This document shows positions 26,745-64,000 of a DNA stretch of 64,000 bases, in pieces. Origin of the DNA: Candidatus Peribacteria bacterium (GTDB taxonomy: Bacteria > Patescibacteriota > Gracilibacteria > Peribacterales > Peribacteraceae); NCBI GenBank assembly GCA_943350395.1, contig CALRAD010000001.1, positions 35,860-99,859 of the forward strand, read 5' to 3'. Under the pieces are notes generated by a model. It was not told the origin of the DNA and ran no database searches. It saw nothing but the letters and a program-made list of their open reading frames with translations. The translations under genes were made by a program, and so were the position numbers. How positions within the stretch are numbered: the stretch's first letter is position 1; the number at the start of each line of letters is the position of its first letter.

Positions 26745-27929
26745 ATGCGCATTCTATCCATTGTGGTCACTGCCTGTGTGCTCGGCTCCGGCCTGATGCC
26801 AACGGTACTCGCTGCGGAGAATATCTATGCCTTTCAGGAATCGGTCAGCGCACTCCAGCAAGACGGCGTGATCGATGCGGGTGCGATTCAAAATCTTCGC
26901 TTGTCACAAGGTATTAATCGGGCGGAAGCGCTGAAAGTTATTCTGAAGGCACAGCCGAAATTTTCATCGAGCCTGAGCACCGTCGGCAATTCGATGCCTC
27001 CCCTCTCGCTCTTCACCGATGTTGATCAACGGAGCTGGTACGCACCATACGTCGAAGTCGGCTTCCGGTCACGATTGATCAAAGGCTATCCGGACGGGAA
27101 ACTCCGACCGCAGTACGGAGTGACTGTCGAGGAAGCAGCGGCAATGATCACGCGATCCTTCGGCGAAGATACGGAGAACGCGGCATTTCAAACACATGCG
27201 GATCTTTGGAACCGAGAAGGACAATGGTACACGGGTGCGCTCAGCGTTCTCATCTCCAGAAATGCAATCCTTCAAGGAAGTGAACTCTCGCCCGGAATGG
27301 CTCTGACCCGCGGAGATTTCTTCGAAATCCTACAGCGAATGCGCCGCGCCCACGGCGTCGACGGACCGATTCCGGCTGCAGTGACGACGCAACCTACCGA
27401 ACAGTCATACGTGGGCGATGGCGCATCCGCTCCACAGGGAAACGTACAAGTTGTACAAGATGCAGCTGCACTGCAGTATGCATCCGGCAAACCATTTGCG
27501 ATTTCAATCCCGAGTCTTGGTATCACTGACCTCACGGTCACGCACCCCGAAGACGCATTCAGCCAAAAGGGCGTTCTCTCCATCCTCAAAGACGGTGTCG
27601 GACATCTCTTCGCCTATCCCGGAGAAGGCAGCAAGGTGATGATTTACGGGCACAGCAGCGGCTATCCTTGGGATGTTTCAAAGTACACAAAGATTTTTCG
27701 AACGATCAACAAAATTGAAATCGGATCTCGCCTGTACGTCACGTATCAAGGAAAAGTATTCGTCTACCAGGTGACGGAAAAGAAAATCGTTCCCGCAAAA
27801 GACCGATCTCTGTTCGAACCAGACGAGAGCGGCGAATCGCTCCTGCTCTATACGTGTTGGCCGCCCGACAGCATCTCTCAAAGATATACCGTACGTGCAG
27901 TGCCGGTGGAGACGATCGCATTAAAGTAG
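26745..27929 (+). CDS. Secreted SLH-like repeat protein fused to a C-terminal sortase domain
   Basis: Signal peptide MRILSIVVTACVLGSGLMPTVLAAE. SLH-like FTDVDQRSWYAPYVEVGFRSRLIKGYPDGKLRPQYGVTVEEAAAMITRSF. Sortase His (VMIYGHSSG), Cys (LLLYTCWP) and Arg (RYTVRAV). Confidence 0.7.
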   Translation: MRILSIVVTACVLGSGLMPTVLAAENIYAFQESVSALQQDGVIDAGAIQNLRLSQGINRAEALKVILKAQPKFSSSLSTVGNSMPPLSLFTDVDQRSWYAPYVEVGFRSRLIKGYPDGKLRPQYGVTVEEAAAMITRSFGEDTENAAFQTHADLWNREGQWYTGALSVLISRNAILQGSELSPGMALTRGDFFEILQRMRRAHGVDGPIPAAVTTQPTEQSYVGDGASAPQGNVQVVQDAAALQYASGKPFAISIPSLGITDLTVTHPEDAFSQKGVLSILKDGVGHLFAYPGEGSKVMIYGHSSGYPWDVSKYTKIFRTINKIEIGSRLYVTYQGKVFVYQVTEKKIVPAKDRSLFEPDESGESLLLYTCWPPDSISQRYTVRAVPVETIALK

Positions 27930-27957: not shown

Positions 27958-30900
27958 TTATTTCAATCTGTCCCACCAGACCTCTCCAAGAGTTGGCTCT
28001 TCTGTGGAAGAAGCATCGTTTTTCACCGACTCTTTCGAGAGAACGATGCCGAGGAATTCAATCAACATGCGCCTCGTAAGCGGCTTGAAACGAAGTTCTC
28101 CGGAAGCCTGCAGATCCACATTCGGATCGTCGAGAAGATCTCTCGCAATGGAGAAAGACAATTCCTGCTGTAGATTCTCGGCCTCCTGCGGCGTAATCAC
28201 GCTTCGGTGAACGTAGAGATTGAGTGCGGCTGAGGCAAGAAGTTTTGACGCATCCCGCATATTGAAAGCAGATTCCGGCTTTCTCAGATCCTGGAGGAGG
28301 AGATCCGGCGCAAATGAAAACAAAGAGAGATCGAATGCGCGTTCATGATCCTGGCTTCTGTAGAAAACGCGAGACACGAAGCTCAAGTCGCGAGACAAAC
28401 CAGAGAGCAAATCTCTCTGGACTCTCGAACCGACGGATCCTTCGAGCGGAGCAGACTCCTGGAGCACGGCCTGCTTGGCACTTGGAGGAGGCAAGCAGCG
28501 CAATACAAGAAGCGTTCGTAGTATTTCGAAAAGTGACACGGGCTCATCGAGTTTGATCTTCGTTTTTCCCTTGCTGACGCCAAACTCCGTGGGCTTACTC
28601 GTGCCGGTCAGTAGCCACAGTGTCTTCGAATCCGCATTCAACGTTCCTCGAGACAATAGCGCACGGATCACCGGCTCAAGAGCGTCGCCCGGAAGCATGT
28701 CGCTGAACGTGACATCATCCGCACGATCGGCATCAGTCGACAGACACTCGAGTGCAGGAAGTGCTGCAAAGTCTGAGAGGAAGTTTTTCTCTTCCTGTGC
28801 ATCCTCCTGTTCCCCTTGAAGACTCTTGTCGAAGACAATTGGAAGTAAGCTGATGTGTCCCGCTTGGAACGACGCTTTCGTCAGCATCGTCGCAGCTTCA
28901 TCGAGATCGATTCCCTGCTCAAGCCCCAGCACTCGAAGGAAACTCTGTGGCAAAATTCCGAGAGAAGAAAGCGTGGAATAATCGGTGACAAGTAGATTGT
29001 TCTCCGGAAGATCTGTTGGGAGAGGGCCAATACGTACTTGTTTCTCCTCAGGAATCTTCATTGCCGCTTTCAGAAGAGCAATAGCTTCTCGTCTCGTGAC
29101 GGGTGCGGAAAGATCTGCAGCCGGACCACGAGGGGTCAGACGTGCAGCCGGAAGGTCAGCTGACAGAAGAGAATAGACGAGAACGGCATTGCTCGTAAGA
29201 GGACTGACAGGAAGATCGATGAGCGGAAGTATGGTGCCATTTTTGGTGAAACCCTGAGGAGAAGACAGCAAAGGCACACATTGGGTCCGTGCAAGCAACG
29301 TCAGGAAATCCCCCCGACTGACCAAATCCCGCTCCAGATTGATACCGTCAAGCACAGGAAGCGAGAATGCATCTTCAAGTCGACCAAGCAGAGCGAGCGA
29401 GTCCGATGTATCCGAACCCTTCACGGCTGACGCTCCTACCGAAAGACAAGGCTTGTAATCCAAAAGTGCTTCCCTGCGGAAACCGAAAGAAATGGATGTC
29501 ATGGAATCGAGACGAACAATATGCCCAGATGAGATTATGTTGCCTGTCGGACTGAATGAATCCAGTACAAGCGATCCTGTTTCGACGATGATTGCGTATC
29601 CCCGCTCATCGCTCCTCTCGAGCTCGAATGTCGTATCCCCATCTGGAGAGAGAGTCTGTGAAAACCGTACGGATTTACCAGAAGCCGTACTGCCCGACGC
29701 CGTGACAACAAGGCCGCCAAACTCATACTTCTCGCGGAGATCTTTCACGCCGTTGCCGTTGATGTCTTCGAATGCCGATACCATGATAAATCCGGATTCG
29801 GTGAGTTTCACCGGTTTTGGAGGTCTCCACATGCTTCCTCCCGCCGTCGTTGCCGCGGAACTTGCGCCTCCACCTCCTCCGCTGCCTCCCGTAAAACCGC
29901 AGGTGGAGCTGAGCGTAAAAGTCTGTTCACTGCTTCTGGTAGATTTCAAACCCGTATCGATTGCTGCAACACTCCAGTAGTAGGTATTGCCACACGGAAG
30001 ATTTTTCAGAAGCGTGGTTCTGCTTTGACCGTTCGGCACGACTCGCGAAACCCAGTTTGGACTCGCGGTTCTCTTCGAAATATGACTGTTGGAATTACTT
30101 CCTGTTCCCACCTGCAACTGGTACTGCAGTTGGCGTGCCGTACTCTGCGTATCCGAACCCGAACCCCACGAGAGACGGACTTGAGCCATCGTATAAAAAA
30201 CCGTGACGCGAATATGGTCGACCCAACCAAGACTGCCACCAATGATGTTATCCTGCGCTGCAATTGCGACACCGAAGTCGACAGCATTGATCTGCGCCGG
30301 AGTCCACGTCGTCCCCCAGAGATCACCTCCGCTTCCGTAGCTGACCACCGTCTCACTTGTCGGCCATGTCGTCGCCAGACTCCTGTCGGTGGAACCAATC
30401 GAACCACTCTTGATGACACGAACCGCATAATCTTTCACACTTCCCGAAATCTGCCTCTTCTCAACCTCGACAATGATGCCGAGAATCGTCGCTGTCGTCG
30501 GAACATTGATATTAAAACCCGTCGCCGTGAGATAGTGACCAATCGAACTGGGCGCACCCAAGCTGATCGTTGCATAAACATCGTTACTGGAATAAACATC
30601 GCTCATGCTTCCCCAAGCGATGCTTCCGACAGCACTGTTGTCCGTACTTCCGGTCGGATTTTTTGGACTCGGAGACACAAGAGCGCCGGTAAGAGTAGCG
30701 AGCGTCGATGCGGTCGGTGCGGTATTGGCACTCGTCGCAGCCTGATCGCTCGTATAATGACGGTTTGCCTGACCTGTATCACCACCGGAATAATCGCCGT
30801 TGCCACGCACGTAATCGACATCGCCATCATTATCGATATCACCAATCGCCGACATAAAGACATCGTCTCCCGGTTGAGTAATAGCTCCAAGAGAAGTGAA

Positions 30901-32067
30901 AACGCCTGTTCCGTCATTCAGAAAAATTTCTGATCCTCCACTGGAACCGATATCCGAACCGTTCAAGGTATAGTCGAGATCACCGTCATTGTCGATATCG
31001 GCAAGTGCAACGCTATTCGTCGCCGTCACCGTTCCGTAGCTATTTCCTGCAGAAAATGTTCCTGCTCCGTTATTAATGTACACGGTAGATGTTCCGTTGC
31101 CTGCGACTATCAGGTCGATGTTGCCATCGGCATTCAAATCGCCGGGCGCAAAGTATGCGACATCCACGCTTCCGAAAGTGGAAAGTTGAACGAACGAACC
31201 CGTACCGCTGTTGCGCATTACTTTTCCGCTGGTTGCCGCTCCGGGCGGAGCAAGAATCAGATCGAGATACCCGTCACTATCGACATCAAAAGATGCAAGG
31301 GTATACGACGCAGGAAGCGGTGACGCGGCAGCCGTAAAGTTGCCATGTCCGTCATTGATATATACGGCTTGCGTAAGAACGCTTGAACCATTGGTCACGA
31401 CAATATCGAGTGTCGTATTGTTGTCGACATCAACCAAAAGAATGTCGTTCCATGCAGCAATATTCATGGAAATGCAGGTGAAACTTGCCGATCCGTTATT
31501 AATGCATTTCGCATTGGCAGCCGCACCCGCGCCCGGAGAAGCGAACACCAGATCCAGATCGCCATCGCCGTCAATGTCACCGGCAGCAAAATCGAGAAAT
31601 GCTTGCGAACTGCCGAAGGTGGAACTGCTGAAAACGCCTGATCCGTTATTCAGATAGAGATCGAGAGAACCAGGAAGAGTCGTATTATTTCCTGCGATGT
31701 AATCGAGATCACCGTCATTGTCGAAGTCACCCATCACGACATCGATCGTATCGTTCGCCTCGGACGTTGTGCTGCTTAAGGTAAACGACATCGCATACAC
31801 AGTGGCGATGAACTGGAGGAAGAGAATCAGCAGTGAAACCGACAGAATGCTTGCCATGATGATCTCGAGCTTCGGCGGCAGCCTCGGATGCAAGCTCTCG
31901 ACATCGGCAAGAGACATTCTGTTCACACGCAGGTGATTGAAAATATCGATCCACTCCACAACAACAGCAATCATCATAATGGCGATGCCGACCGATAAGC
32001 TCATGAATGCACGAATATGAGTGATCGTGAGCAGCATCGCATCGATATCGCTGCTTCCGATCGGCAC
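27958..32067 (-). CDS. Giant surface protein with seven FG-GAP/VCBS-type repeats (putative beta-propeller) and an SLH-like C-terminal region
   Basis: Repeats: DFDNDGDLDY, GDIDGDGDLDLV, VDVDNNTTLDIV, FDVDSDGYLDLI, GDLNADGNIDLI, ADIDNDGDLDY, GDIDNDGDVDYV. A signal-peptide-like MASILSVSLLILFLQFIATVYA suggests an alternative start at 31857. C-terminal SLH-like pieces: VTRREAIALLKAAM, SRGDFLTLLART. Confidence 0.75.
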   Translation of the reverse strand: MPIGSSDIDAMLLTITHIRAFMSLSVGIAIMMIAVVVEWIDIFNHLRVNRMSLADVESLHPRLPPKLEIIMASILSVSLLILFLQFIATVYAMSFTLSSTTSEANDTIDVVMGDFDNDGDLDYIAGNNTTLPGSLDLYLNNGSGVFSSSTFGSSQAFLDFAAGDIDGDGDLDLVFASPGAGAAANAKCINNGSASFTCISMNIAAWNDILLVDVDNNTTLDIVVTNGSSVLTQAVYINDGHGNFTAAASPLPASYTLASFDVDSDGYLDLILAPPGAATSGKVMRNSGTGSFVQLSTFGSVDVAYFAPGDLNADGNIDLIVAGNGTSTVYINNGAGTFSAGNSYGTVTATNSVALADIDNDGDLDYTLNGSDIGSSGGSEIFLNDGTGVFTSLGAITQPGDDVFMSAIGDIDNDGDVDYVRGNGDYSGGDTGQANRHYTSDQAATSANTAPTASTLATLTGALVSPSPKNPTGSTDNSAVGSIAWGSMSDVYSSNDVYATISLGAPSSIGHYLTATGFNINVPTTATILGIIVEVEKRQISGSVKDYAVRVIKSGSIGSTDRSLATTWPTSETVVSYGSGGDLWGTTWTPAQINAVDFGVAIAAQDNIIGGSLGWVDHIRVTVFYTMAQVRLSWGSGSDTQSTARQLQYQLQVGTGSNSNSHISKRTASPNWVSRVVPNGQSRTTLLKNLPCGNTYYWSVAAIDTGLKSTRSSEQTFTLSSTCGFTGGSGGGGGASSAATTAGGSMWRPPKPVKLTESGFIMVSAFEDINGNGVKDLREKYEFGGLVVTASGSTASGKSVRFSQTLSPDGDTTFELERSDERGYAIIVETGSLVLDSFSPTGNIISSGHIVRLDSMTSISFGFRREALLDYKPCLSVGASAVKGSDTSDSLALLGRLEDAFSLPVLDGINLERDLVSRGDFLTLLARTQCVPLLSSPQGFTKNGTILPLIDLPVSPLTSNAVLVYSLLSADLPAARLTPRGPAADLSAPVTRREAIALLKAAMKIPEEKQVRIGPLPTDLPENNLLVTDYSTLSSLGILPQSFLRVLGLEQGIDLDEAATMLTKASFQAGHISLLPIVFDKSLQGEQEDAQEEKNFLSDFAALPALECLSTDADRADDVTFSDMLPGDALEPVIRALLSRGTLNADSKTLWLLTGTSKPTEFGVSKGKTKIKLDEPVSLFEILRTLLVLRCLPPPSAKQAVLQESAPLEGSVGSRVQRDLLSGLSRDLSFVSRVFYRSQDHERAFDLSLFSFAPDLLLQDLRKPESAFNMRDASKLLASAALNLYVHRSVITPQEAENLQQELSFSIARDLLDDPNVDLQASGELRFKPLTRRMLIEFLGIVLSKESVKNDASSTEEPTLGEVWWDRLK

Positions 32068-40953: not shown

Positions 40954-41064
40954 AGAGGAAGTGATTATAGCTCTTCTCTATACAGCCATCATTTTGTGTT
41001 CAATACGTTGAATTCGATGTTCATGATCGTCGAACCGATCTTTCGACTGGGAATGGCAATACAA

Positions 41065-52695: not shown

Positions 52696-53811
52696 TCAGA
52701 GAATCTTCAAAAATTCATCAAACAAATAATTTGCATCCTCCGGTCCAGGCGTTGCTTCCGGATGAAACTGCACGGAGAAAAACTTTCCCGACTCATGACG
52801 TATGCCTTCGATCGTTTCATCGTTGGCGTTTGTGAACCATGTCTGCCAACCAACAGGAAGCTTCGTGCCGTCAACGGCAAAGCCATGATTTTGGCTCGTG
52901 ATAATGCATTTCTTCGTCGGCTTGCCATTCTCCCACAGCAGACACGGCTGGTTCACACCTCGATGACCGTACTTCAACTTGTAGGTGTCACCGCCGATCG
53001 CAAGTGCTAGAAGCTGGTTCCCAAGACAAATGCCAAACGTCGGGATCCCCTTCCCCAGTGCCCACTTAATTTGCTCGATCGTCTTATCACACTTCTTCGG
53101 ATCGCCGGGACCATTGCTGATGAAGAGTCCGTCGTATTTCAACGTCGACGTTGCGAGATCGTAATCCCACGGAACTCGATGCACCGTCACTCCCCTCTTC
53201 AGCCACGAGCGAAGAATATTTCGTTTGATACCACAGTCGTAGGCGATGATGCTCTTGATCGATCCCATCGGAAAATCTTCATTCCTGGGCTCGTAGGTCA
53301 CGACATCTCGTGAACTTACTTCGGCAACGAGATTCTCCTCATTCGGATCTTCGATGAGCTTCGCTTTCAGCTCATTGGTAATGACGTCATCCTGCACAAT
53401 GCGCCCGAGCATCACGCCGGTCTCTCGAAGCTTCTTCGTGAGTGCTCTCGTATCGATCCCCGAAATCCCGGGAATTTTGTGATGCACCATCCACTCATGT
53501 AATGAACTCACCGCCGTGAAATGACTGTAATCCCTGCTCTCACTGCTGACGATAATCCCACGCACGTGAATATCCTCGCTCTCGTAATTCTTCGAAAAAC
53601 CATACTCGTTCTTCTCCTCACTCGGCACGCCGTAATTGCCGATCAAGGGATATGTAAACGTGAGAATCTGCCCACGGTAACTGGGATCCGTCATCGACTC
53701 TGGATAGCCAGCCATGCCCGTGTTGAACACAACCTCCCCGTCGCTGTCGACCGCTGCTCCAAACGACTGACCACGGAACACCGTGCCGTCTTTAAGAATC
53801 AGGGTCGCCAT
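52696..53811 (-). CDS. carA: Carbamoyl-phosphate synthase small (glutaminase) subunit
   Basis: ATLILKDGTVFRGQSFGA, MTDPSYRGQILTFTYPLIGNYG, GICLGNQLLA and SQNHGFAV. The start is set at ATG 53811. Confidence 0.9.
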   Translation of the reverse strand: MATLILKDGTVFRGQSFGAAVDSDGEVVFNTGMAGYPESMTDPSYRGQILTFTYPLIGNYGVPSEEKNEYGFSKNYESEDIHVRGIIVSSESRDYSHFTAVSSLHEWMVHHKIPGISGIDTRALTKKLRETGVMLGRIVQDDVITNELKAKLIEDPNEENLVAEVSSRDVVTYEPRNEDFPMGSIKSIIAYDCGIKRNILRSWLKRGVTVHRVPWDYDLATSTLKYDGLFISNGPGDPKKCDKTIEQIKWALGKGIPTFGICLGNQLLALAIGGDTYKLKYGHRGVNQPCLLWENGKPTKKCIITSQNHGFAVDGTKLPVGWQTWFTNANDETIEGIRHESGKFFSVQFHPEATPGPEDANYLFDEFLKIL

Positions 53812-53842: not shown

Positions 53843-54139
53843 TCAAGCTGCAACCTTGTGTTCCAATCTGACGATCCGCCGACCGTGGTCATCCAAACGA
53901 TCTTGATGTTGCTGCACCTGATCCTTCTTGGCATCCAGCACATCAGCACGGAGATTCTCGATCAGAAATTCCGTGTGATCCATCATTCGTTTTTCGATTC
54001 CATGCACCTCTTCAAACACTTTACCCATCGTATCCATCAATAGAGCAATGTCCTTTTTTGTTGTCGAAGAAGCATCGTCTTTCTTCATAAGGAAGAGCCT
54101 ATCGCCAAGGTTCAAGAAATGCAAAGACTTTATCGTCAA
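53843..54139 (-). CDS. Hypothetical coiled-coil protein (last gene of the ORFan operon)
   Basis: 98-aa ORF with an ATGA overlap with the upstream ORF. No recognisable motif. Confidence 0.5.
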   Translation of the reverse strand: MTIKSLHFLNLGDRLFLMKKDDASSTTKKDIALLMDTMGKVFEEVHGIEKRMMDHTEFLIENLRADVLDAKKDQVQQHQDRLDDHGRRIVRLEHKVAA

Positions 54140-54468
54140 AATTTCTTCGAAATCGCATCCAATTTTTCCTGATCCACCGCTGCCGACTCCTGCTCTTTCT
54201 CACGCAAAGACTGCGTCTTCGCAGTTCTGGTAAATCCCTTCACCCCCGACTTGAACGCAAGAAACGCTTCCTCAAATTTCTTGTAGGCGACTGCGTACCG
54301 CTTCATTCTAGCTTCATGCTCAGTTGGAGTTTCTGCTGCATATTTGATATCGAGCAGCGGAATAGACGCAAGCAAAAGATCGGGCTCGATCTCTGCCATG
54401 AGAGAGTCGTAGATCTGCTTACTGATCTCATCTTGCTGCTGAATTGAAGGGGGGAGCGGGGTGGGCAT
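54136..54468 (-). CDS. Hypothetical protein
   Basis: 110-aa ORF, 11 nt downstream of the previous gene. Looks helical and charged. No recognisable motif. Confidence 0.5.
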   Translation of the reverse strand: MPTPLPPSIQQQDEISKQIYDSLMAEIEPDLLLASIPLLDIKYAAETPTEHEARMKRYAVAYKKFEEAFLAFKSGVKGFTRTAKTQSLREKEQESAAVDQEKLDAISKKF

Positions 54469-54479
54469 GGCAATAGAAA

Positions 54480-54842
54480 TTAGTGGTGACCTCCTCCGCT
54501 GGCACCGGCGGTTGCGAATAACGAGGAAGGCTTATTCAAGAGCTTGAAAATTGCAACTCTGAAAGTATCAATTGGCTGCACGATGGCTTTATCAATCCCC
54601 TGTGTAATCAAACCAATACCGTTATTCAAGCCTGCAATACCTGCCTCGGTTACACCGATAGGAAAATCAACTGCTGTTGCCGTCGTATGCTTCAGAAGAT
54701 CCCACGTTTTGCTGACTACTCCCGTTACATTATCGACAACCGTTTTCGATTCTGGAGAACGTCCGCTCCTCGGGCTGATGAAAGCATTGAAATTGCCCAT
54801 CAGTCCATCGGTTGCCGTTGAGGAAGTGTGAGCTGTGGACAT
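54480..54842 (-). CDS. Hypothetical protein ending in GGGHH
   Basis: 120-aa ORF. Gly/Ile-rich segment GVTEAGIAGLNNGIGLITQGI and C-terminus AGASGGGHH. Confidence 0.5.
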   Translation of the reverse strand: MSTAHTSSTATDGLMGNFNAFISPRSGRSPESKTVVDNVTGVVSKTWDLLKHTTATAVDFPIGVTEAGIAGLNNGIGLITQGIDKAIVQPIDTFRVAIFKLLNKPSSLFATAGASGGGHH

Positions 54843-54859
54843 AGAGAAAAATCTTACGA

Positions 54860-55672
54860 TTAGAGACCCGTCTTCGAGACAAGGAACTGAAGAAGCTTCA
54901 TGAGTCCTTCTGATACCTTAATTGACGTTCCAACAATTCCATTCGTATAGAAAGCACCTAAGCCAAGAACAGTCATTAAACCTACAGACTTGGGATGTGC
55001 TTTCAATGCATCGATATAATGAGACGGAAGTGACAAAATTCCAGAAATAAGTTTTTTTCCTCCACCGTAGACCTGCTCAAGAATGTTCTTAGTTTCACCG
55101 GGGGTCTCATGCAAGAGATCGTGAAGATGTTCATTGGTGAATTGCCCTACTCTGTGCAAAGTATTCACTGTTCCCTTTGCAACATTCAGCCCTGCAGTCA
55201 TTCCCAATTTCGGAAGATATGTTGCAGTTTCCCATACACTTCGCACGCCTTCCTTGGCAGCTCCTCCAACTGCACGCACACCTTTATCCAGGAGCGAGAA
55301 ACCGGGGATTTTCTTCAAGACTTTGTTCCAACCGAAATCCGCAACCTTCGCAGTGCCTGCAACAACGGTTGTCACAACAGGATTGACTACAAATGCTGTC
55401 GTGAGTGCTGCTTTTCCTAATGTACCTCCGGATGGGACATCTGGCAGCTTTGAATAGGATAAAAGTGGCTTATATTCGGTTACAATGCCATGAATCTCTG
55501 CATCGCCTCCCTTATGTATTTCATGACCGACCGCCGCATGTACTTTGTCGTGCGTATCTTTCGCTCCGCCTTCCACCTTGGCCTTCGCTTTGGCGTCGGT
55601 CTCGCCGGCGGCTTTGTGGCCATGTTCGGCGTGTGCCTTTGGTGCCTCTGGGGGTGCGGATGGGTGTGACAT
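54860..55672 (-). CDS. Hypothetical membrane-associated protein with a His-rich N-terminus
   Basis: 270 aa. The N-terminal ~64 aa read HAEHGHKAAG...HDKVHAAVGHEIHKGGDAEIHG. Hydrophobic stretches: AALTTAFVVNPVVTTVVAG and VGLMTVLGLGAFYTNGIVG. Confidence 0.55.
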   Translation of the reverse strand: MSHPSAPPEAPKAHAEHGHKAAGETDAKAKAKVEGGAKDTHDKVHAAVGHEIHKGGDAEIHGIVTEYKPLLSYSKLPDVPSGGTLGKAALTTAFVVNPVVTTVVAGTAKVADFGWNKVLKKIPGFSLLDKGVRAVGGAAKEGVRSVWETATYLPKLGMTAGLNVAKGTVNTLHRVGQFTNEHLHDLLHETPGETKNILEQVYGGGKKLISGILSLPSHYIDALKAHPKSVGLMTVLGLGAFYTNGIVGTSIKVSEGLMKLLQFLVSKTGL

Positions 55673-55684
55673 AGAATTGCGAAA

Positions 55685-58600
55685 TTAATGCGCGGGATGC
55701 GCTCCATGATCGTCTTTTTTATCATCGTGTTTCTCGTCATGCTTATCCTCATGTTTCGGTGCAGCAACTTTTTTCTGAAGTGTATTTCCAAACCAACCGA
55801 TGACTCCCCCACCGGCATCTTTTATCCGACCGTAGAGATATCTGCCTCCTCCGTAGACAGCAGCACCTCCAAGAATGACAGGAGCAGAAATAATGCTGGT
55901 GATTGTGCTCACGACCGCTCCGGCTCCGACAAGATTGAGTCCTGCAGCAAGCAGAGCAACGACAGCAACAGGTTCGGTTGTCTTGACCGCAAGTTTTGCG
56001 ATTTCGGCAGCTGTAAATTTGGTACCGGAAAGTGCTGCATCTTTGGCCGCACCTTTGAACGTTGCACCGAACTTCGGACCGCTGTGACTCTTCGTATGCT
56101 CCCACTCCTTCCTTACCTTCTCGGCAAACGCTTCGCGAATGATTTCGAAAGCTTTCTTCAGTTGCTCGATTCTTGCTTCCTTTCCTTTATCGTACGCATC
56201 TTTCGATTCTGAAACTTCTTTCTTCATCGCAACGTAACGGGATGCAGCCTTGTACTTTTTCTCAGCATCCTCATACTCACTTTCCTTATCTGGATCACCG
56301 GTTTTATTTGCATCCGTCTTCGTCTTTTCCCATCGTTTCTTCGCATCCTCCGATTCTCTCTTGTAATCCTCAACGTCAAATTTATCAGGCTTAGAACCTG
56401 CAAGAAGATTGGCAATTTCAACATTTTTTTCATGTCCTTTCAGATGAGACATGTTTTTGAGTTTCTCCTGCGCTTGCTCGAACAAAATTTTATCCGCGTC
56501 ATCGTTCGTGCTCTCCCACTTTTGTTGTGCCGCTTCTTCATCCTGCTGAAGAACAGCAAAAGAATCGTCACTGAATCCGAATTGCACATCAAGGATATCC
56601 AACCTCTTCTGCTTGGCATCACGCTCTTCTTTGGCTTTTTTCTCCGTGTCAGTTTCTTGATTTTCATAATAATCGATTGCAAAAATATCTCTGGCAGATG
56701 ATGCCAATTTCACCGAAACCAAGGGCGGTGTTTTTATTTTGTCCAATTTTTCTTTTGCTTTTTTGGCTTTTGACTCCTGACCGTCTTCCCCTTGAATTTC
56801 GGATTTGATCTCGCTCAATTCGCGAAGAATTTCATCAGACTGCCTCTGGAAACGACCTGCAGCTCTCTTCGCTTTTGCATTCGTATCCTTTGAAACGGAA
56901 TCCGTGCGTGAACTCGTATCACTTTCGATACCCCTCTGTTCATCGAGAGACGAATCGACTTCATTCTTCCTACGTTCAAGGTCAGACAGCTTTCTTTTAA
57001 GTTCTACAAGTTTCTGCTTTTCTTCTTCAAAATCCCTTTCTGCTTTTTCAACATCCTCTTTCTTGGCAGCAGGCGGCGGAGGCAACTTAGCTCCGAGCAA
57101 ACTCTTCATCGCACTCTCCTGTAATCGAAGAGCCATCTCTTCCTGAGTGGCAATGCTCGTATCGTGAAGAACGTGTTCATCAAACTTCATGACTTTCATC
57201 CAATGCTTGTGATCATCGGTAAGATCTTCCGCGGCGATCTTTCGCCTGAAGACATCACCCATGAACAATGCCCTTGAATCGTCGGCATGCTCCGTGACAG
57301 CGGTAGTTACACGCAAGTGTCCGTGATCATCGAATTCGAGACCCTTGGGCTTCTTCGTACCGATATAGAATCTTCGTCCGGCTTCCCAAAGACCCGCAAT
57401 GACGAGCGGTGTTGGACCGAGAAGCGGTGTGAGAACTCCCGCAGAAGCGAGCGAAGTGCCTGTAAGCTGCGCTTGCCGCTTGCGAGCGTGCTCGTAAGCA
57501 AGAAGCTTGCCATATTCCTCGGATACCTCATGAAGCTTACGAAGCTTTTTAATTTTGTCAGCTGCTTCTGGATCTTCCTTGTCCTCCTTCTCGATATGAA
57601 AACTGCTGACCACCTCCGTTTCGCGCGGCTTCAAAGGACGATCCTCAGATTTCTTTTTTGCCAAGGCCGCAATCGTCGCATTGAATTTCACAAAACAATA
57701 TTTCGTATAGTTTTCCTCCGATCCAAGATACGGAACTTCGGCAGGACTGCAGTGTGCATACTCGGCCATCAGAGAAATCAATTCCTTCTCTTCAACCGTA
57801 TCGATCAGACTTTTCCCATGAACTGCGTGATGATGTTCAATTTTATGCCGCAAGTCTTTGACGGATGTTTTGTTTTCGTCAACCGCGGCTCCAAGATCCC
57901 AGAGCTCAGTGACGTATGCAGTATTCACTGCCAACTTATAGCGTTTATTATCAAGGTAATTTCTTCCTGCCAATGTGACCAGCGGCAATGCAGCCGGAAC
58001 GAGTGGAGCAGCAAGATTCGTGATGGCATTTCCACCGAAAGCGAGGGCTCCACTTAGTGAATGACCGAGAACGGCATCCGCTGCAAGGAATCCTCCTTCA
58101 GCCTCCGCGAAACCGACAACGCCTCCCAAAGCAGTACGTCCCAAACGATCCGCAGCAGGAACAATCGCTCCTTTCTCGCGACGCTTTCGATACCCGCCGA
58201 CAAGCGTTTTGTGCGGATGATCCGAAAAGAGTTCGTCTGCGGGTACTCCGAGCTTGCTGTTCAGTTCCAAAATCCGTTTTCCGACGGCTGCAGTTGTTTT
58301 CTTCGGATACCACGGCATGTTCTTCAGCCTCACTCCTGCAGCGAGACCGAATGCTTTCACTCCGCCTGGGATTGCCGCAAGCCTCTCACCCACATTCCAT
58401 CCCTTGCGTGCGTAAGCCCGAACTTCGGAGAAGATGGAAACTAAATCCGACATGATTTCATCCCACTTTGCTTTTTCGATCGGAAAATAACTGCTTGGCG
58501 GATAGTGCAAAAGCGTCATCATCACGCCAATTTCTTTCAACGTATTCGTCGAAGCTACAGGATAAGCCTTTTCACCCGCAAGAAAATTGAGATGCGCAAC

Positions 58601-59701
58601 AAAAAGATCACACACTTCCTTCGCCTTTGGATGCTTGGCCTCTTTTCCGTTGAGAGCAGACTTTAGTGATTTCCGAAAATCTGCATCATTAAAAAGCAGC
58701 ATTCCGCGAATTTTGTCAGCTGTCTCGCCTAATTCATAATGCTGTGCATCAAGCTTATCCTCAACAGTTTCTTCATAGTCGCCAACTTCAACTTCGTCAT
58801 CGGACGCAGGAGCTGCAGGAATTTCCGAATCGGAATTGGAGGATGTATCTATTCCCGCATCGGAATCAAAAGAAAAGTCTGCGGACGAGTCTGGTGCTGC
58901 AGGAAATTCTGAATCAGAATCGGGAGCAAGAGGAATGCTTGCATCTGATTCGGGAGGAAGCGTGATGCCTTCCTTCGAATCAGGAGGTGTTTCGATTTCA
59001 GCATCGGAATCTAGAAAAATCGTCTTTTCGCCATGCCCTGTGTCAATTTCTGCATCAGAATCAAAATCACTGGAATCATGTACATCAAACTTACGTTCTG
59101 CATCGCTGTCGTCCACAAGAGGCTCAAAATCATCATCTGCGAGAACTGGGGAAGGATTGGCATGCTGCCAAAGCTGACGCAACGCAAGAATCAAATCGTT
59201 TCGAAAATCCGTCGCAGCGGCAAGGTTGGGTGATTGCAAGGCGTTCAATCGCGATTGTGCTAAAAATTCATCAACCTCATGCAAATCATCAATCAAGACC
59301 AAGCTATCCGAGTCAGGTGAGATAAGATTCTCAAATCTGCTTACATATCTGCAAAGCAATTCAACGATCCTGATTGCGTCGTCATCCCAAAGGCTACGTG
59401 ATGCAAAAGACAATTTCAGCTGATCGCCGATCGCACCATCGTCATGAGCAAGCTCCCTTTTCACTTCGGACCAATCTCGACCGAATTCGTCGTGTAGCGC
59501 ACGAATTTTTTCAGCCGGCGATTCCGCGCTCTGCCGTGGGGCTGTTTCATCGTGAAAGTCTCGATAAATACGGCTTCGCTCATCATCCCTGACACCCTCG
59601 ACCCTGTCTTCCGCAGAATGATCGGATGATTCGGGCAACGATTCTCCACCTTCCTTCTTAGGAAGTTCATCGTCCGGCCGTTGTTTTTTTGGATCGTTCA
59701 T
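55685..59701 (-). CDS. Giant (1338-aa) hypothetical protein with acidic decapeptide repeats, a coiled coil, Gly-rich hydrophobic hairpins and a His/Asp/Lys-rich tail
   Basis: Long uninterrupted ORF. DSDAEI-type repeats at aa ~197-303. Coiled coil KKEDVEKAERDFEEEKQKLVELKRKLSDLERRKNEVD. Hydrophobic hairpin VAVVALLAAGLNLVGAGAVVSTITSIISAPVILGGAAVYGG. Tail KHEDKHDEKHDDKKDDHGAHPAH. No enzymatic motif recognised. Confidence 0.7.
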   Translation of the reverse strand: MNDPKKQRPDDELPKKEGGESLPESSDHSAEDRVEGVRDDERSRIYRDFHDETAPRQSAESPAEKIRALHDEFGRDWSEVKRELAHDDGAIGDQLKLSFASRSLWDDDAIRIVELLCRYVSRFENLISPDSDSLVLIDDLHEVDEFLAQSRLNALQSPNLAAATDFRNDLILALRQLWQHANPSPVLADDDFEPLVDDSDAERKFDVHDSSDFDSDAEIDTGHGEKTIFLDSDAEIETPPDSKEGITLPPESDASIPLAPDSDSEFPAAPDSSADFSFDSDAGIDTSSNSDSEIPAAPASDDEVEVGDYEETVEDKLDAQHYELGETADKIRGMLLFNDADFRKSLKSALNGKEAKHPKAKEVCDLFVAHLNFLAGEKAYPVASTNTLKEIGVMMTLLHYPPSSYFPIEKAKWDEIMSDLVSIFSEVRAYARKGWNVGERLAAIPGGVKAFGLAAGVRLKNMPWYPKKTTAAVGKRILELNSKLGVPADELFSDHPHKTLVGGYRKRREKGAIVPAADRLGRTALGGVVGFAEAEGGFLAADAVLGHSLSGALAFGGNAITNLAAPLVPAALPLVTLAGRNYLDNKRYKLAVNTAYVTELWDLGAAVDENKTSVKDLRHKIEHHHAVHGKSLIDTVEEKELISLMAEYAHCSPAEVPYLGSEENYTKYCFVKFNATIAALAKKKSEDRPLKPRETEVVSSFHIEKEDKEDPEAADKIKKLRKLHEVSEEYGKLLAYEHARKRQAQLTGTSLASAGVLTPLLGPTPLVIAGLWEAGRRFYIGTKKPKGLEFDDHGHLRVTTAVTEHADDSRALFMGDVFRRKIAAEDLTDDHKHWMKVMKFDEHVLHDTSIATQEEMALRLQESAMKSLLGAKLPPPPAAKKEDVEKAERDFEEEKQKLVELKRKLSDLERRKNEVDSSLDEQRGIESDTSSRTDSVSKDTNAKAKRAAGRFQRQSDEILRELSEIKSEIQGEDGQESKAKKAKEKLDKIKTPPLVSVKLASSARDIFAIDYYENQETDTEKKAKEERDAKQKRLDILDVQFGFSDDSFAVLQQDEEAAQQKWESTNDDADKILFEQAQEKLKNMSHLKGHEKNVEIANLLAGSKPDKFDVEDYKRESEDAKKRWEKTKTDANKTGDPDKESEYEDAEKKYKAASRYVAMKKEVSESKDAYDKGKEARIEQLKKAFEIIREAFAEKVRKEWEHTKSHSGPKFGATFKGAAKDAALSGTKFTAAEIAKLAVKTTEPVAVVALLAAGLNLVGAGAVVSTITSIISAPVILGGAAVYGGGRYLYGRIKDAGGGVIGWFGNTLQKKVAAPKHEDKHDEKHDDKKDDHGAHPAH

Positions 59702-59707
59702 ATTTTT

Positions 59708-62700
59708 TTATTGTAATTTTTCTAAGGAGCCTTCTGCACTCTTGAGCCTGCTTCTCACTTTCGGTTCCAAAGCATTGAATGTGCCCTTCGCTTTCGTCTT
59801 GAAACGTTCACAAGCTTCCGGACTCGGATCCCACTGATTTCCAAACCATTCACCGACGGTTCGCCATGGACGTGAAAGCGGCAACTGCTTTGAATCTTTA
59901 AAGTATTTCAGATTGAATTCCTCCAAGCTCATCTCTGCATATCCATTATTCTTGAGCACTGAAAATTCAAGTACCCATGAAATGGTATCGTGCAGAAGCG
60001 GAGCAAGCTCTCCGGCAGCTTTATAGAGCTTCAAAAGCTCGACTTCCGCAGCAGGATTCTGCAATCCCTTCAAGCTGAGAAGCGGATCTTTGTCGATCAC
60101 ACCCTTTGAAAGAATCTGTACGACGGCGCGATCGATGAGATATTGGATCCTTGCACGTTCCACATCGTTTGCACTCGTTCGAAGCTGGAGAAGAGGACGA
60201 AGATCATCGGCTTTTTTCAACGAAGGCAAGATCCTGTCGGCAACGTTCTTGATGTTCGGAACATTGACTCCCTGCAGGTAATTATGGAATTCGTCTTTGT
60301 TACCATCGTAATTTTTTGCGTTAAGCGAAGCCAACGTATTGTCAAATTTCTCACGCAGCTTGGTAGAACGACCTCTTGCCTTTCTGATCTCGCCAAGAAG
60401 ATCCTTTTGCGATTGAAGATCGGTATTGTCAAACGGAGCCTCCTCTGCCTGCGCCAATTCGTCATCATCAATCTGCTTCACTTCCTCGTGTTTCTCCAAA
60501 TCCTGCTCACTCACATCCGGAGGTTCCACACCAGCCAACATCCATTTCGCCCTCGGATGATTCAAGGCAAGACCCAATTCATCAGGCATACCGACATCCG
60601 GTACTGAGAATGCTGCAAACAGTTTTTCCCTGTCACGAATATCACCGCTTGTGACTCTCTTCACTTCTGGACTGTTGCCTCGTCTGCTGCGCAATGCATC
60701 GAGATAATTTTGTGCATCCTTCACTTTCAGCGTCAAATCCATGCCCTGCGGATTGTCCTTGTTCGAAAGCATGCTTTCGAGAAGCACGTTGGTGGTGAGC
60801 GTCGAAAGATACTCTTCGTATTTTTTGTACTCATCGGGTTGCAGAGTTACTTTCGCTTCCTGCTTCAAACCATCGGTGTACTTCGCCAGTTCGTAGACGG
60901 TGTAATCCTTGGCTTTTTCGTAGGAGAGGAAAGAGGTCAAATACGCCGACCAATCGGCGGCACCCCCCATAAACGTTCCGTTGTTCTGGTCCGCATAATC
61001 TTTGAGCGCTCCGCTCAGAACTCGATCCTGACCGATCACAGAGAGAATCTCAGCGTTGTTATAGCGCGAGCGAATGTAATCATATGCTTGGACAAGATTG
61101 ACATCCCTCGCTGCAACGTTAAATTTCATAGTAGCAGGATCAAAATCTACCGGCCAAGTAACATCAAGGCGCTTCTTCGATGTGTAGTTTTTGTTGTCTC
61201 TGTTGTTGAAAATTTCCTGAGCACGATCTGCAGCCATGAAAGAGAAAATTTCGCGTTTTAACAATTCATAACGCAACATTCGTTCTGCCGGATCTTTTGT
61301 ATCTTTCTCGATGAACTCCTTCGTATTCGGGTCTTGCGTCGGCAATTCAATTCCAATTTGTGTCAGCCATTTGTCGACGAGATTTTCATGTCTGGCACCG
61401 AGCGGCTTTGCCGCGTTGTTCATCAAGGCGACGAGATCCGTACGGAACGTGTGAACTTGTGACACCTCTTGAATATCGATGTTCTCGACGCGCTTTCCGA
61501 AGAAGGCGAAGAAAGCCGCCTCGAAGCCCTGCAAAATCCTGCCGGTCACTCCATGGGCGCGCATTTCGCGATACAACTCGAGCGCCTTTCGCTCGCGCAC
61601 GAAATCCACACCCGCTTTCCCTTTCTCGAACACCCAATTCAAGCCTTGCGGAGTCTGGCTGACCAATACTCCCGCTTCGCTGCAAAGTTTCTTGAGCAAT
61701 ACCCATGACGCCTGTAGATCCTCGACAACTTCTGCTTTGAACTTAAATCCGCTGACAATTGCCCACTTTTTGAAAGACTCTATCGACTCCATGGAATTAT
61801 CGACAACATCGCCAATAAGGAGAGGGGTCTGGTCAATGGCGTGCTCAACCTTCACCTGCAGGAAGGAAGCTCCCTGTTCAAATTTATTTTTTGCAGAAGC
61901 ACCAAGCACTCCCAATTTTGCCCATCCCAATTCGCTGAACGTTGTCTCGTCGAGAGCCGCATTCACAGCCGGAGTCGGACGCTCGAAGATGAGAACATCC
62001 TCCATCGTGAACTGACCACCCGGACGCTTCTTCGCCGCATCCTTGAGTTTCTTGGCAATGCCCATATCGGCAATATAGTTTTCGTTGAAATTGACGTAAC
62101 GCTTCCGTAAATGTGTGGCTCCGAGCGCGGCGCGCTGCTCAGGTGTTCCTCCACCGAGCGCATTGCGATCAGCAGTTTGAATGCAGAGATATTCGAGTGC
62201 CTTGAGCATCGTCTCGTATCCCTGCTTCCGGAGTTCTGCTCCGGGGAATTGATTGGCAGATGCGATGCCGATGGCGGCAACGACTTTATTGACTCTGAGT
62301 GAAGACGGAATGCCTGCAGTGAAATCGCTTCCTCCATTACTCTTCACTTTGTCTCTCCAGTCGAGAAGTTGACCGATACCAATCGGACTCTTCGGATTCA
62401 TAAGTTCGGCGACAGCGACGCGTCCCGGTTCATCATCAAGATTGAATTGCTTCTCCTTGCGACTCGAACGAACGAATTGTTCGAGTGAAGAACTGCGCTC
62501 ATTTTCAGGAACAAAGCGCATATTCATGCGGTCGAGAACGCCTTTTCCGGTTGCCCGTTTTACGGCGATATCAAGACCGACGAAAGCGGGAATACCGATG
62601 AGAACGTTTCGCCACATTCCTTCAGCTTTCCATGCACGGTAGATTGCATAGAGGGCTCCGAAAGCCAATCCGCCGGCAAGCAATTGCTCCGCTCGATCAC

Positions 62701-64000
62701 CGCTGTTGAACATATCGCTGAGCGTGTCCATCGCTGTGCGAACAGTGCTAAGAAGATCCTTGGAATGACCGCCACGTTCTAGCTGCTTTCGAACGACATT
62801 TTTATCCTGCACTTGATGCGCAAGATGCTGATGGATGAGACGCACGTAAAGAGATGCCTGCATCGATGTCATCGGAACATCGACTGTCTTATCCACTCCC
62901 TTCTCCTTAGTCTTGAAGGCATAGGTCTGATCTTTGTCCTGAGTGTAAGCAGCAACCAACGCTTTGGAAGCACCCTTTCTATTGAATGCGGGATCGTCGT
63001 AGAGAATGGCTGAAAGAATGACACCTGCTTTCGCCTTATCATTGATGAGATCATCGACACTGAGAGATACTCCTTTCTTGGTGCGCATATCACTCAAAAT
63101 CTGCGTCAGCGCATGAGGAATGACACGAATACCCGTATCGTTCGTCATAGGCTGCAAGATATCCCTGCCGCTCATCGTCTCTGCCTGGTTCACGCGACCA
63201 ACGTAGTCCGCAACCGGATCTGCAAGATCGGGGTTTTGTAAGGCGTATGCCTGAGGATTCTCCAAATATTTTTTTGCATCAACCATGCCTTTTGTCATCG
63301 CAAGATAGAAAGCCACATTGCGAATATGCTGATTCGGTTGAATGGAAAAATTTGTACCCTTCTCAAGATCCTCATAGACAGCCTTTGCCGTATCAAGAAG
63401 CATCGCCGCCTGCCTTGCCTTCTCTGCAGGAGTGGATGCAGGACCAATTGCCTTACCAATAAGATCAACCTCACTCTGAAGATCCCTCAATTGCTTGAAG
63501 GCATTCTCCATGTGGTTGTCTCCGGTTGCCGGCCAGGTTTCCAGTGTCTCGATTGCCGATCTAGCTCTGTAGAGAGCCTTATTTTTCATGATCAAGTCAT
63601 AAAGATTTTTGTCATCTGCCTGAGGTATAACGTTATCAGGAAGACTGGCAATCCAATCCCACCAGATGCCGACAAGCTTGCCTCCGGCAACAAATACAAC
63701 CTTCCTCGACTCACTGGTAATAAGTGCAACTAGCTCTTTCTCCTTTAGAGCTTTCTTTTCTACATTGCCAACTGGTACGCCAATCGCATTGCGAAGGTCA
63801 GCCTCAATTATATTGATGCCTTTGGCAGCCAACGCGGCACGCAATGCCGCAATATTTAAAATTGTTCCAATAAATGATTTTGCGATCATATCTTTTGCCT
63901 CACTTTCACCAAGAAGCTTGTCATACGCAGCCTTCACTTCAGCGGGAGCAAGATGATCTCCGGTCATCAACTTATTCCATTCCTGCCGTGCACCCGTTTG
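59708..64000 (-). CDS. Giant (over 1430 aa, 5'-partial) hypothetical protein with one central hydrophobic hairpin
   Basis: The track ORF starts at a TTG at 63970, but the frame stays open to the window edge (QTGARQEWNK upstream), so the gene probably starts beyond 64000. Hydrophobic hairpin LLAGGLAFGALYAIYRAWKAEGMWRNVLIGIPAFVGLDIAV (nt 62561-62683). No recognisable domain. Confidence 0.7.
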   Translation of the reverse strand, partial: QTGARQEWNKLMTGDHLAPAEVKAAYDKLLGESEAKDMIAKSFIGTILNIAALRAALAAKGINIIEADLRNAIGVPVGNVEKKALKEKELVALITSESRKVVFVAGGKLVGIWWDWIASLPDNVIPQADDKNLYDLIMKNKALYRARSAIETLETWPATGDNHMENAFKQLRDLQSEVDLIGKAIGPASTPAEKARQAAMLLDTAKAVYEDLEKGTNFSIQPNQHIRNVAFYLAMTKGMVDAKKYLENPQAYALQNPDLADPVADYVGRVNQAETMSGRDILQPMTNDTGIRVIPHALTQILSDMRTKKGVSLSVDDLINDKAKAGVILSAILYDDPAFNRKGASKALVAAYTQDKDQTYAFKTKEKGVDKTVDVPMTSMQASLYVRLIHQHLAHQVQDKNVVRKQLERGGHSKDLLSTVRTAMDTLSDMFNSGDRAEQLLAGGLAFGALYAIYRAWKAEGMWRNVLIGIPAFVGLDIAVKRATGKGVLDRMNMRFVPENERSSSLEQFVRSSRKEKQFNLDDEPGRVAVAELMNPKSPIGIGQLLDWRDKVKSNGGSDFTAGIPSSLRVNKVVAAIGIASANQFPGAELRKQGYETMLKALEYLCIQTADRNALGGGTPEQRAALGATHLRKRYVNFNENYIADMGIAKKLKDAAKKRPGGQFTMEDVLIFERPTPAVNAALDETTFSELGWAKLGVLGASAKNKFEQGASFLQVKVEHAIDQTPLLIGDVVDNSMESIESFKKWAIVSGFKFKAEVVEDLQASWVLLKKLCSEAGVLVSQTPQGLNWVFEKGKAGVDFVRERKALELYREMRAHGVTGRILQGFEAAFFAFFGKRVENIDIQEVSQVHTFRTDLVALMNNAAKPLGARHENLVDKWLTQIGIELPTQDPNTKEFIEKDTKDPAERMLRYELLKREIFSFMAADRAQEIFNNRDNKNYTSKKRLDVTWPVDFDPATMKFNVAARDVNLVQAYDYIRSRYNNAEILSVIGQDRVLSGALKDYADQNNGTFMGGAADWSAYLTSFLSYEKAKDYTVYELAKYTDGLKQEAKVTLQPDEYKKYEEYLSTLTTNVLLESMLSNKDNPQGMDLTLKVKDAQNYLDALRSRRGNSPEVKRVTSGDIRDREKLFAAFSVPDVGMPDELGLALNHPRAKWMLAGVEPPDVSEQDLEKHEEVKQIDDDELAQAEEAPFDNTDLQSQKDLLGEIRKARGRSTKLREKFDNTLASLNAKNYDGNKDEFHNYLQGVNVPNIKNVADRILPSLKKADDLRPLLQLRTSANDVERARIQYLIDRAVVQILSKGVIDKDPLLSLKGLQNPAAEVELLKLYKAAGELAPLLHDTISWVLEFSVLKNNGYAEMSLEEFNLKYFKDSKQLPLSRPWRTVGEWFGNQWDPSPEACERFKTKAKGTFNALEPKVRSRLKSAEGSLEKLQ

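Follow-up and report, generated by a model that had tools for sequence, protein, structure and literature searches.

A conserved five-gene module headed by two giant proteins in Candidatus Peribacteria

We analysed a 64,000-nucleotide (nt) stretch of contig CALRAD010000001.1, referred to here as the window, from a bacterium of the candidate phyla radiation (CPR), Candidatus Peribacteria. The end of the window is occupied by a run of minus-strand genes, g1 to g6, headed by two giants and followed by carA. Five of these genes, g1 to g5, most likely constitute a vertically inherited, Peribacteria-specific module. An open reading frame (ORF) scan of the window reproduced all six consecutive minus-strand ORFs with the positions and sizes first reported, together with the intergenic gaps of 6, 12, 17 and 11 nt within the operon and the 31 nt that lie between the last operon stop and the start of carA at 53811. 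The leading giant, originally recorded as a partial frame of more than 1430 amino acids (aa), stays open to the window edge and reaches 1696 aa on the source contig. The genes are listed below, with the lengths of g2 to g5 taken from the ORF scan.

59708..>64000, minus strand: g1 (giant 1), C-terminal 1430 of 1696 aa, with its start about 800 nt beyond the window
55685-59701, minus strand: g2 (giant 2), 1338 aa
54860-55672, minus strand: g3, 270 aa
54480-54842, minus strand: g4, 120 aa
54136-54468, minus strand: g5, 110 aa
53843-54088, minus strand: g6, 81 aa from an ATG, or 98 aa from a doubtful TTG at 54139

Gene callers begin g6 at either a TTG (90 aa) or the ATG (81 aa); with the latter, g5 and g6 lie 47 nt apart. 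The 4-nt overlap of g5 and g6 had been given as ATGA; the letters are in fact TTGA, and the overlap depends on the doubtful TTG start.

Relatives and gene order across Peribacteria

The proteins had been described as ORFans, a description that the following searches overturned. An exhaustive HMMER search with g1 residues 497-1696 as the query returned 58 homologue clusters at 50% identity, all at E<1e-10 and without a twilight tail, and orthologues of g2-g5 occur in the same order in diverged Peribacteria. The g1 homologues are nearly all 1500-2260 aa long and share 21-42% identity with g1, and all named members are Candidatus Peribacteria. We defined the g1 family as full-length giants of 1500-2260 aa that align over the core (residues ~450-1100) at E<1e-10; g1 itself aligns over this core at E<1e-10 and is followed by same-strand homologues of g2, g3 and g4. 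A word-index protein search with g1 and g2 is too insensitive for the family and found one relative only, at 90-92% identity. A contig scan with P0003 returned only itself, and a metagenome scan with alignment A4 returned no relative.

Genomic contexts were fetched for seven further g1 homologues, beside an orthologous contig from Lake Baikal (L003). The gene orders at the related loci were as follows.

L003, a 14-kb contig of a Peribacteria metagenome-assembled genome (MAG) from deep Lake Baikal: same gene order as the window
L005, g1 identity 41%: nuclease, g1, g2, g3, g4, g5, a 624-aa coiled-coil protein, g6-like gene, carA
L006/L007, g1 identity 33%: RNase Y (divergent), nuclease, g1, g2, g3, g4, carA, purN
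L012, from Rifle: RNase Y, nuclease, g1, g2, g3, g4, g5, two extra genes, carA
L011, g1 identity 28%: g1, g2, g3, g4, HicA, carA, with the upstream nuclease absent
L008: g1-g2 adjacency
L009: g1-g2 adjacency
P0021 contig: g1-g2 adjacency
L010: nuclease fragment immediately before g1, with an unassigned ORF after it

The order g1-g2-g3-g4(-g5) recurs in L003, L005, L006/L007, L011 and L012, and the gaps inside the module measure 3-73 nt in every locus. BLASTP confirmed the homology of g2, g3, g4 and g5 across loci, except that g4 in L011 and L012 was assigned by position and composition only. Judged from these contexts, the conserved unit is g1-g2-g3-g4, usually with g5 and usually preceded by the nuclease. 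The first-pass annotation had named a lack of conserved gene order in relatives as grounds for giving up its proposal; the order is conserved, which strengthens the finding. Its view of a six-gene operon stands for the tight packing, but the conserved unit is one of five genes, because g6 is missing from four of the six loci that show this end (L003, L006, L011 and L012). In L003, an unrelated 163-nt spacer takes the place of g6, and in L005 an orthologue of g6 adjoins carA. Hence g6 is a real small gene but a variable neighbour outside the conserved module.

The genes that flank the module are housekeeping genes (RNase Y, carA, purN, rpoC), and their arrangement is stable across 25-41% protein divergence, which marks the locus as part of the vertically inherited core and not an island. 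As the first reading of the window had it, the operon is not accounted for by any gene of a phage, a secretion ATPase or a mobile element.

Extending the sequence past position 64000, as had been proposed, located the true start of g1 and revealed its upstream neighbour, a membrane-anchored nuclease. The nuclease gene (863 aa; 2265-4856 of L001, which is the window's own locus, just past 64000) lies on the same strand as the operon, and its product combines LTD, PKD and SNase domains with a signal peptide and a membrane anchor at the C-terminus. In seven of the eight loci whose upstream side is visible, a nuclease gene of the same orientation precedes g1 directly or at close range, with gaps of 18-86 nt (L001, L003, L005, L006/L007, L010 and L012; L009 and the P0021 contig carry insertions). 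The 47-nt gap between the nuclease gene and g1 is 100% identical in L003 and holds the strongest promoter-like site of the region, TTGTCC-17-TGcTATAAT. The sequence GAGGG lies five bases 5' of the g1 ATG, immediately after the TATAAT box, so that g1 may have a very short leader.

This neighbourhood invites the view that the genes encode a trans-envelope apparatus for scavenging DNA or nucleotides, in which the surface nuclease would degrade external DNA, g2-g4 would supply the membrane part and g1 and g5 would form a cytoplasmic receiving or processing part. We regard this as unlikely, though not negligible. The recurrence near g1, in seven of eight loci, of an SNase-family nuclease that has a C-terminal anchor and, where called at full length, a hydrophobic N-terminus speaks for it, but RNase Y and carA are kept alongside equally often, so that inherited synteny alone can explain the adjacency. 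L011 retains g1-g4 without the nuclease, and in L009 toxin-antitoxin and opposite-strand genes split the nuclease from g1. The conserved promoter-like site before g1 also speaks against it, although a consensus match is no proof. Nucleotide-synthesis genes do lie downstream (carA, purN and a PyrK-like gene), which fits scavenging; on the other hand, no ATPase, DNA-binding or channel family was detected in the module, and g2 is strongly acidic, with a net charge of -55. Furthermore, Peribacteria can synthesise nucleotides de novo (PMC4736985), which counts against a scavenging role.

The ends of the module are hot spots of lineage-specific insertions (L005 14254-16128; L012 20856-22304 and 22419-23636; L011 19360-19866; L009 2755-3792). 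The inserted genes encode the 624-aa Lys/Glu coiled-coil protein, a 482-aa Arg/Tyr/Pro-rich protein, HicA and HEPN/nucleotidyltransferase toxin-antitoxin proteins, and the nuclease and g1 of the P0021 contig have an IS200-type Y1 transposase between them. Elsewhere in the window, at 40984-41049 on the minus strand, we observed a start-less remnant of ~27 codons with the C-terminal motif of g6, DRFDDHEHRIQRIEHK. It is located 30 nt upstream of ribD, mirroring the 31-nt spacing of g6 and carA, and suggests a small-protein family, or a decayed copy, set before biosynthetic genes.

Coding evidence, composition and mosaic identity

Comparison with the Lake Baikal contig gave ratios of nonsynonymous to synonymous substitution rates (dN/dS) of 0.13 for g1, 0.24 for g2, 0.09 for g3, 0.06 for g4 and 0.09 for g5, and 0.09 for carA. 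Because the ratios of the five genes lie at 0.06-0.24, g1-g5 are real protein-coding genes under purifying selection. The operon had been judged slightly richer in AT than its surroundings, and the difference is real but small (47.8% GC vs 50.3% in the rest of the window), while GC content at third codon positions, 0.42-0.51, is inside the range of the other window genes. A foreign origin on the grounds of GC content was rejected, since so small a difference falls within the variation among the window's genes. We found no Shine-Dalgarno-like sequence in front of g2-g5, whose spacers are A/T-rich (e.g. 54843-54859, 55673-55684 and 59702-59707), and Rfam and transfer RNA scans of the region found no RNA element.

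Identity to the Lake Baikal contig is distributed as a mosaic: three tracts in g1 and g2 are ~98-99% identical to it, and the remaining locus is 67-86% identical.

61623..63522, minus strand: 1.9-kb tract, 99.1% DNA identity
55829..58828, minus strand: 3.0-kb tract, mostly 97-99% identical, with two 100-bp windows at 93-95%
L001 4783-5682, outside the window: third near-identical tract

These tracts are the reason for the low synonymous divergence (dS) of g1 (0.33) and g2 (0.16), compared with 1.0-2.1 for g3-g5 and carA. The mosaic reflects either recent recombination between diverged populations or a chimeric MAG assembly. If the near-identical tracts are real, they would show that the giant genes have been exchanged between populations.

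Predicted architecture and searches for known families

The proteins are largely helical and charged, in agreement with the first-pass annotation. The Gly/Ala-rich hydrophobic hairpins that it also reported are present in g2 and g3 but not in g1, which contains no such charge-free stretch. The principal features of the giants are the following.

61499..63451, minus strand: most conserved core of g1, residues ~450-1100, from the conservation profile of 59 sequences and the alignment
62549..62698, minus strand: weakly hydrophobic helical hairpin of g1, residues 701-750, followed by the motif G-x-D-I-A-x-K-R-x-T-G-K-G
58772..59134, minus strand: acidic Asp/Ser/Pro-rich repeats of g2, residues ~190-310, of DSDAEI type and variable copy number
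57962..58144, minus strand: first Gly/Ala-rich hydrophobic region of g2, residues 520-580, charge-free over 543-579, with a Lys/Arg cluster downstream
57377..57475, minus strand: central hairpin of g2, residues 743-775, charge-free with a Pro/Gly turn, with four Lys/Arg upstream and five downstream
56012..57064, minus strand: Lys/Glu-rich long-helix (coiled-coil-like) spacer of g2, residues ~880-1230, from the alignment
55847..56002, minus strand: C-terminal double hydrophobic segment of g2, residues 1234-1285, Kyte-Doolittle 2.23
55688..55774, minus strand: His/Asp/Lys-rich C-terminal tail of g2, lineage-variable, absent in L005 and L006

The g1 hairpin reaches a Kyte-Doolittle 19-residue mean of only ~1.4, and in 19 of the 59 family members no segment attains 1.4. 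No charge-free hydrophobic stretch of at least 24 aa occurs in g1. The possibility that g1 is a membrane protein was rejected, since the hairpin is too weakly hydrophobic and not charge-free and thus provides no safe transmembrane anchor. We saw no conserved catalytic-type motif in the g1 family. An AlphaFold2 model of g1 residues 351-1450, built from a 30-sequence alignment, has a mean predicted local distance difference test score (pLDDT) of 70.6 and a predicted template modelling score of 0.44, and comprises 67% helix, 5% strand and three well-folded blocks. Taken together, we read g1 as probably a soluble or peripheral, mostly alpha-helical, multi-domain protein.

The orthologues of g2 range from 744 to 1289 aa and have in common three stretches free of charged residues, each 25-53 aa long. 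Most of these contain a Pro/Gly turn, and most are flanked at both ends by Lys/Arg clusters. The first two, both with such a turn, belong to a conserved core that follows the acidic N-terminus. The acidic region of the disordered N-terminus shows a 49-aa deletion in a 90%-identical orthologue and is represented by non-homologous acidic repeats in L012, and the length of the helical spacer differs between orthologues, from ~60 to ~450 aa. The central hairpin is kept in L003, L005, L008, L011 and L012, with a related segment in L006. The C-terminal segment, present in all full-length orthologues, includes a 43-aa charge-free stretch (residues 1244-1286) with basic flanks and is the strongest predicted membrane anchor of g2. 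His-rich tails were rejected as a defining feature because they are absent in L005 and L006. In an AlphaFold2 model of g2 built from a 2-sequence alignment (pLDDT 39.9), the only confident part consists of long helices at residues 881-990. Lys/Arg flanks mark the cytoplasmic side of membrane segments (the positive-inside rule), and their presence on both sides of most g2 stretches fits in-out-in hairpins. The first-pass annotation had put forward a possible envelope or host-contact apparatus; the topology predicted from the present signals has the large soluble parts facing the cytoplasm and not the exterior.

The small proteins are of several kinds. A disordered Lys/Ala/His N-terminus in g3 is followed by two conserved hydrophobic segments, and g3 orthologues were found in five other loci. 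The g4 protein is Gly/Thr/Ala-rich and ends in Gly-His at its C-terminus. The soluble g5 carries the conserved helical motif IYDxLMxEIEPxL...KYxGET...RMxRY and in L009 is encoded on the opposite strand, upstream of g1; g6 is a small helical protein. The Cys content of g1-g5 is 0-0.3%.

None of these proteins belongs to a recognisable family by sequence or, for g1, by fold, in line with the initial impression. Pfam, NCBIfam, PHROGs and PADLOC gave no significant match to g1-g6, nor did Pfam to the orthologues; the best PHROGs E-values, 0.01-0.07, were not significant and concerned g3, g4 and g6 only. Searches of PDB sequences with phmmer and hmmsearch for g1, g2 and g3 yielded only noise, namely designed helical proteins and coiled coils, and Foldseek of the g1 model against the PDB found nothing at E<=1e-3 (best E 0.15). 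The two giants showed no relationship to each other (probability 0.6% in an hhalign comparison of their families). The stated lack of a P-loop, HExxH, signal peptide and LPXTG was correct apart from a single HExxH string, HEDKH. This string is part of the low-complexity His tail of g2, and the 90%-identical orthologue lacks it. No Walker A motif occurs in g1-g6, and the operon proteins have no N-terminal signal peptide or LPXTG and no hydrophobic N-terminus. No publication that mentions the accessions or describes the cluster turned up in a literature search.

Several established systems were considered and rejected on these results. Type IV and type VII secretion systems were dismissed given the lack of Walker A in g1-g6 and of any VirB4/VirD4/EssC-type Pfam match in eight loci. 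An RTX toxin, LPXTG adhesin or other surface giant was set aside in view of the missing hydrophobic N-terminus, LPXTG and matches to repeat domains such as RTX, Ig-like or FG-GAP, and an SMC/Rad50/MukB-like coiled-coil ATPase is unsupported, there being no Walker A and PDB profile matches only at the noise level of E>=0.04.

A degenerate prophage or mobile-element remnant, with the giants as tape-measure-like or conjugation proteins, would account for long helical proteins with internal Gly-rich hydrophobic segments, and the g1 model matched minor tail and tape-measure proteins best in BFVD (E 5.8e-3, probability 0.20, template modelling score 0.08). However, these matches are insignificant and reflect generic long helices, and those to PHROGs are insignificant as well. 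A tblastn search of g1 and g2 against 50,697 phage and 72,556 plasmid records found nothing, and IMG/VR contained no relative of the module. The housekeeping flanks are in stable synteny, and no integrase, terminase or other phage structural gene was found at the locus. The search nulls and the synteny effectively refute a mobile origin, to which we attach almost no credence.

Other large surface or unannotated proteins are encoded in the window. A sortase fused to an SLH domain (26745-27929, plus strand) lies beside a 1369-aa FG-GAP/Ig-like protein (27958-32067, minus strand); unlike the unannotatable g1-g5, these form a recognisable surface-protein pair, of which the FG-GAP protein is identified by Pfam. 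An 878-aa ORF at 153-2789 (plus strand) has no Pfam match at E<=1e-4 and represents another large unannotated protein.

Possible role and likeness to known systems

From architecture only, we tentatively propose, with appreciably less than even confidence, that g1-g5 form a non-enzymatic structural complex or scaffold at the cytoplasmic face of the membrane. In this arrangement, g2 with its three hairpins and g3 with its two hydrophobic segments would dip into the membrane through charge-free Gly/Ala hairpins, and both ends of each protein would stay in the cytoplasm. The helical spacer of g2, variable in length, and its acidic disordered N-terminal region would project inward, where g1 would act as a soluble, multi-domain alpha-helical hub of 1700-2260 aa and g4 and g5 as small accessory subunits. 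The complex may organise the envelope site of the neighbouring surface-anchored nuclease. The topology, the assembly into one complex and the scaffold role are all inferred from sequence features.

Several observations weigh against the scaffold proposal. The topology is predicted from sequence rules, and apart from the C-terminal anchor of g2 most of the hydrophobic segments are moderate (Kyte-Doolittle 1.4-1.7), a range that is also typical of secreted membrane-inserting proteins. A same-strand extracellular nuclease 18-86 nt upstream could indicate an envelope or uptake function. The structure model of g2 is poor, at the pLDDT of 39.9 given above, and the sequence and fold searches that were run revealed no homology to any family of known function, although a remote homology may exist.

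The same moderate hydrophobicity bears on a further explanation, in which the proteins would be a non-classically exported translocon or effector set at the contact between an episymbiont and its host, inserting into the envelope or the host membrane in the manner of type III translocators or chlamydial Inc proteins. The 40-50-aa Gly/Ala-rich double hydrophobic domains resemble those of Inc proteins and translocators, Kyte-Doolittle values of 1.4-1.7 fit secreted membrane proteins, and the tracts near-identical to a diverged relative suggest recent allele exchange. We nevertheless consider this explanation decidedly improbable. No secretion ATPase or machinery was found in the window or in any related locus, the basic flanks of each hairpin agree with entry into the bacterium's own membrane from the cytoplasmic side, and the export of soluble domains of 1300-2260 aa in the absence of a dedicated system seems unlikely. 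Published work cuts both ways: the organism's group was inferred to be symbiotic (PMC4736985), which counts for such a role, but the known surface proteins of Peribacteria have signal peptides and are often Cys-rich (PMC4736985), unlike g1-g5.

Whatever probability the scaffold, scavenging, translocon and prophage explanations leave belongs to functions that cannot be named. The five families are absent from Pfam, NCBIfam, PHROGs and PADLOC and have no detectable solved relative; they are new protein families and a candidate apparatus. We see a real prospect, somewhat short of an even one, that g1-g5, possibly together with the nuclease, make up an undescribed apparatus that is composed of five or more new protein families, occurs throughout the class Peribacteria and is without counterpart among known bacterial systems. 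Its lineage-specific role in the cell could be, for example, that of a polarity organelle or of a site for feeding or host contact. At ~10.9 kb, the module takes up roughly 1% of a Peribacteria genome of ~1.2 Mb. Gene order kept down to 25% orthologue identity, combined with purifying selection, makes it unlikely that the module is dispensable. Envelope organisation in CPR bacteria and their interaction with partner cells are largely unexplored, and a structural organelle or uptake machine would represent a new type of apparatus in bacterial cell biology; if so, the module offers a concrete target for cryo-electron tomography, metaproteomics and heterologous localisation. These expectations are tempered by a function deduced from architecture, by the abundance of unannotated genes in CPR genomes and by the uncultured state of Peribacteria, of which we know of no cultured member.

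Among known systems, phage tape-measure proteins share with the giants great length, a mainly helical character and internal Gly-rich hydrophobic segments. In contrast to them, the module has no significant sequence or fold match, is chromosomal and vertically inherited between housekeeping flanks, and lies in no tail-gene cluster. Chlamydial Inc proteins and the type III translocators IpaB, SipB and YopB resemble g2 in their bilobed Gly/Ala-rich hydrophobic domains of ~40-50 aa, and large helical or coiled-coil soluble parts flank the hydrophobic domain in both cases; the g2 stretch at residues 1244-1286 (43 aa) and its orthologue equivalents fall within the ~40-60 aa expected of such a bilobed domain. 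The module differs from them in lacking homology and nearby type III or other secretion genes, in the much larger size of its proteins and in a charge pattern that fits insertion into the cell's own membrane. We saw no type III secretion genes in the 64 kb and its flanks, and no CPR bacterium is known to have a type III system.

Closer in architecture are bacterial scaffolds, although tests place the module in none of their families and the likeness to TipN, HubP and the Mycoplasma HMW proteins is one of architecture. TipN of Caulobacter and HubP/FimV of Vibrio and Pseudomonas are, like the proposed complex, large membrane-anchored non-enzymatic organisers with long cytoplasmic coiled coils and/or acidic repeat arrays. 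Unlike them, the module contains no LysM or FimV domain and no Pfam or NCBIfam match, would be anchored by three hairpins including a C-terminal one, and brings together five genes with a 1700-aa soluble partner. The HMW1, HMW2, HMW3 and P65 proteins of Mycoplasma pneumoniae are likewise large operon-encoded proteins without signal peptides, from a surface-attaching bacterium with a reduced genome, and combine acidic Pro/Ser-rich disorder, long coiled-coil or helical rods and small partners without enzymatic motifs. The module has neither an EAGR box nor any Pfam match, so that the likeness to the HMW/P65 set is in composition only, and it differs in belonging to another phylum, in the predicted membrane hairpins of g2 and g3, and in g1, which is modelled as a folded multi-domain protein instead of a rod.

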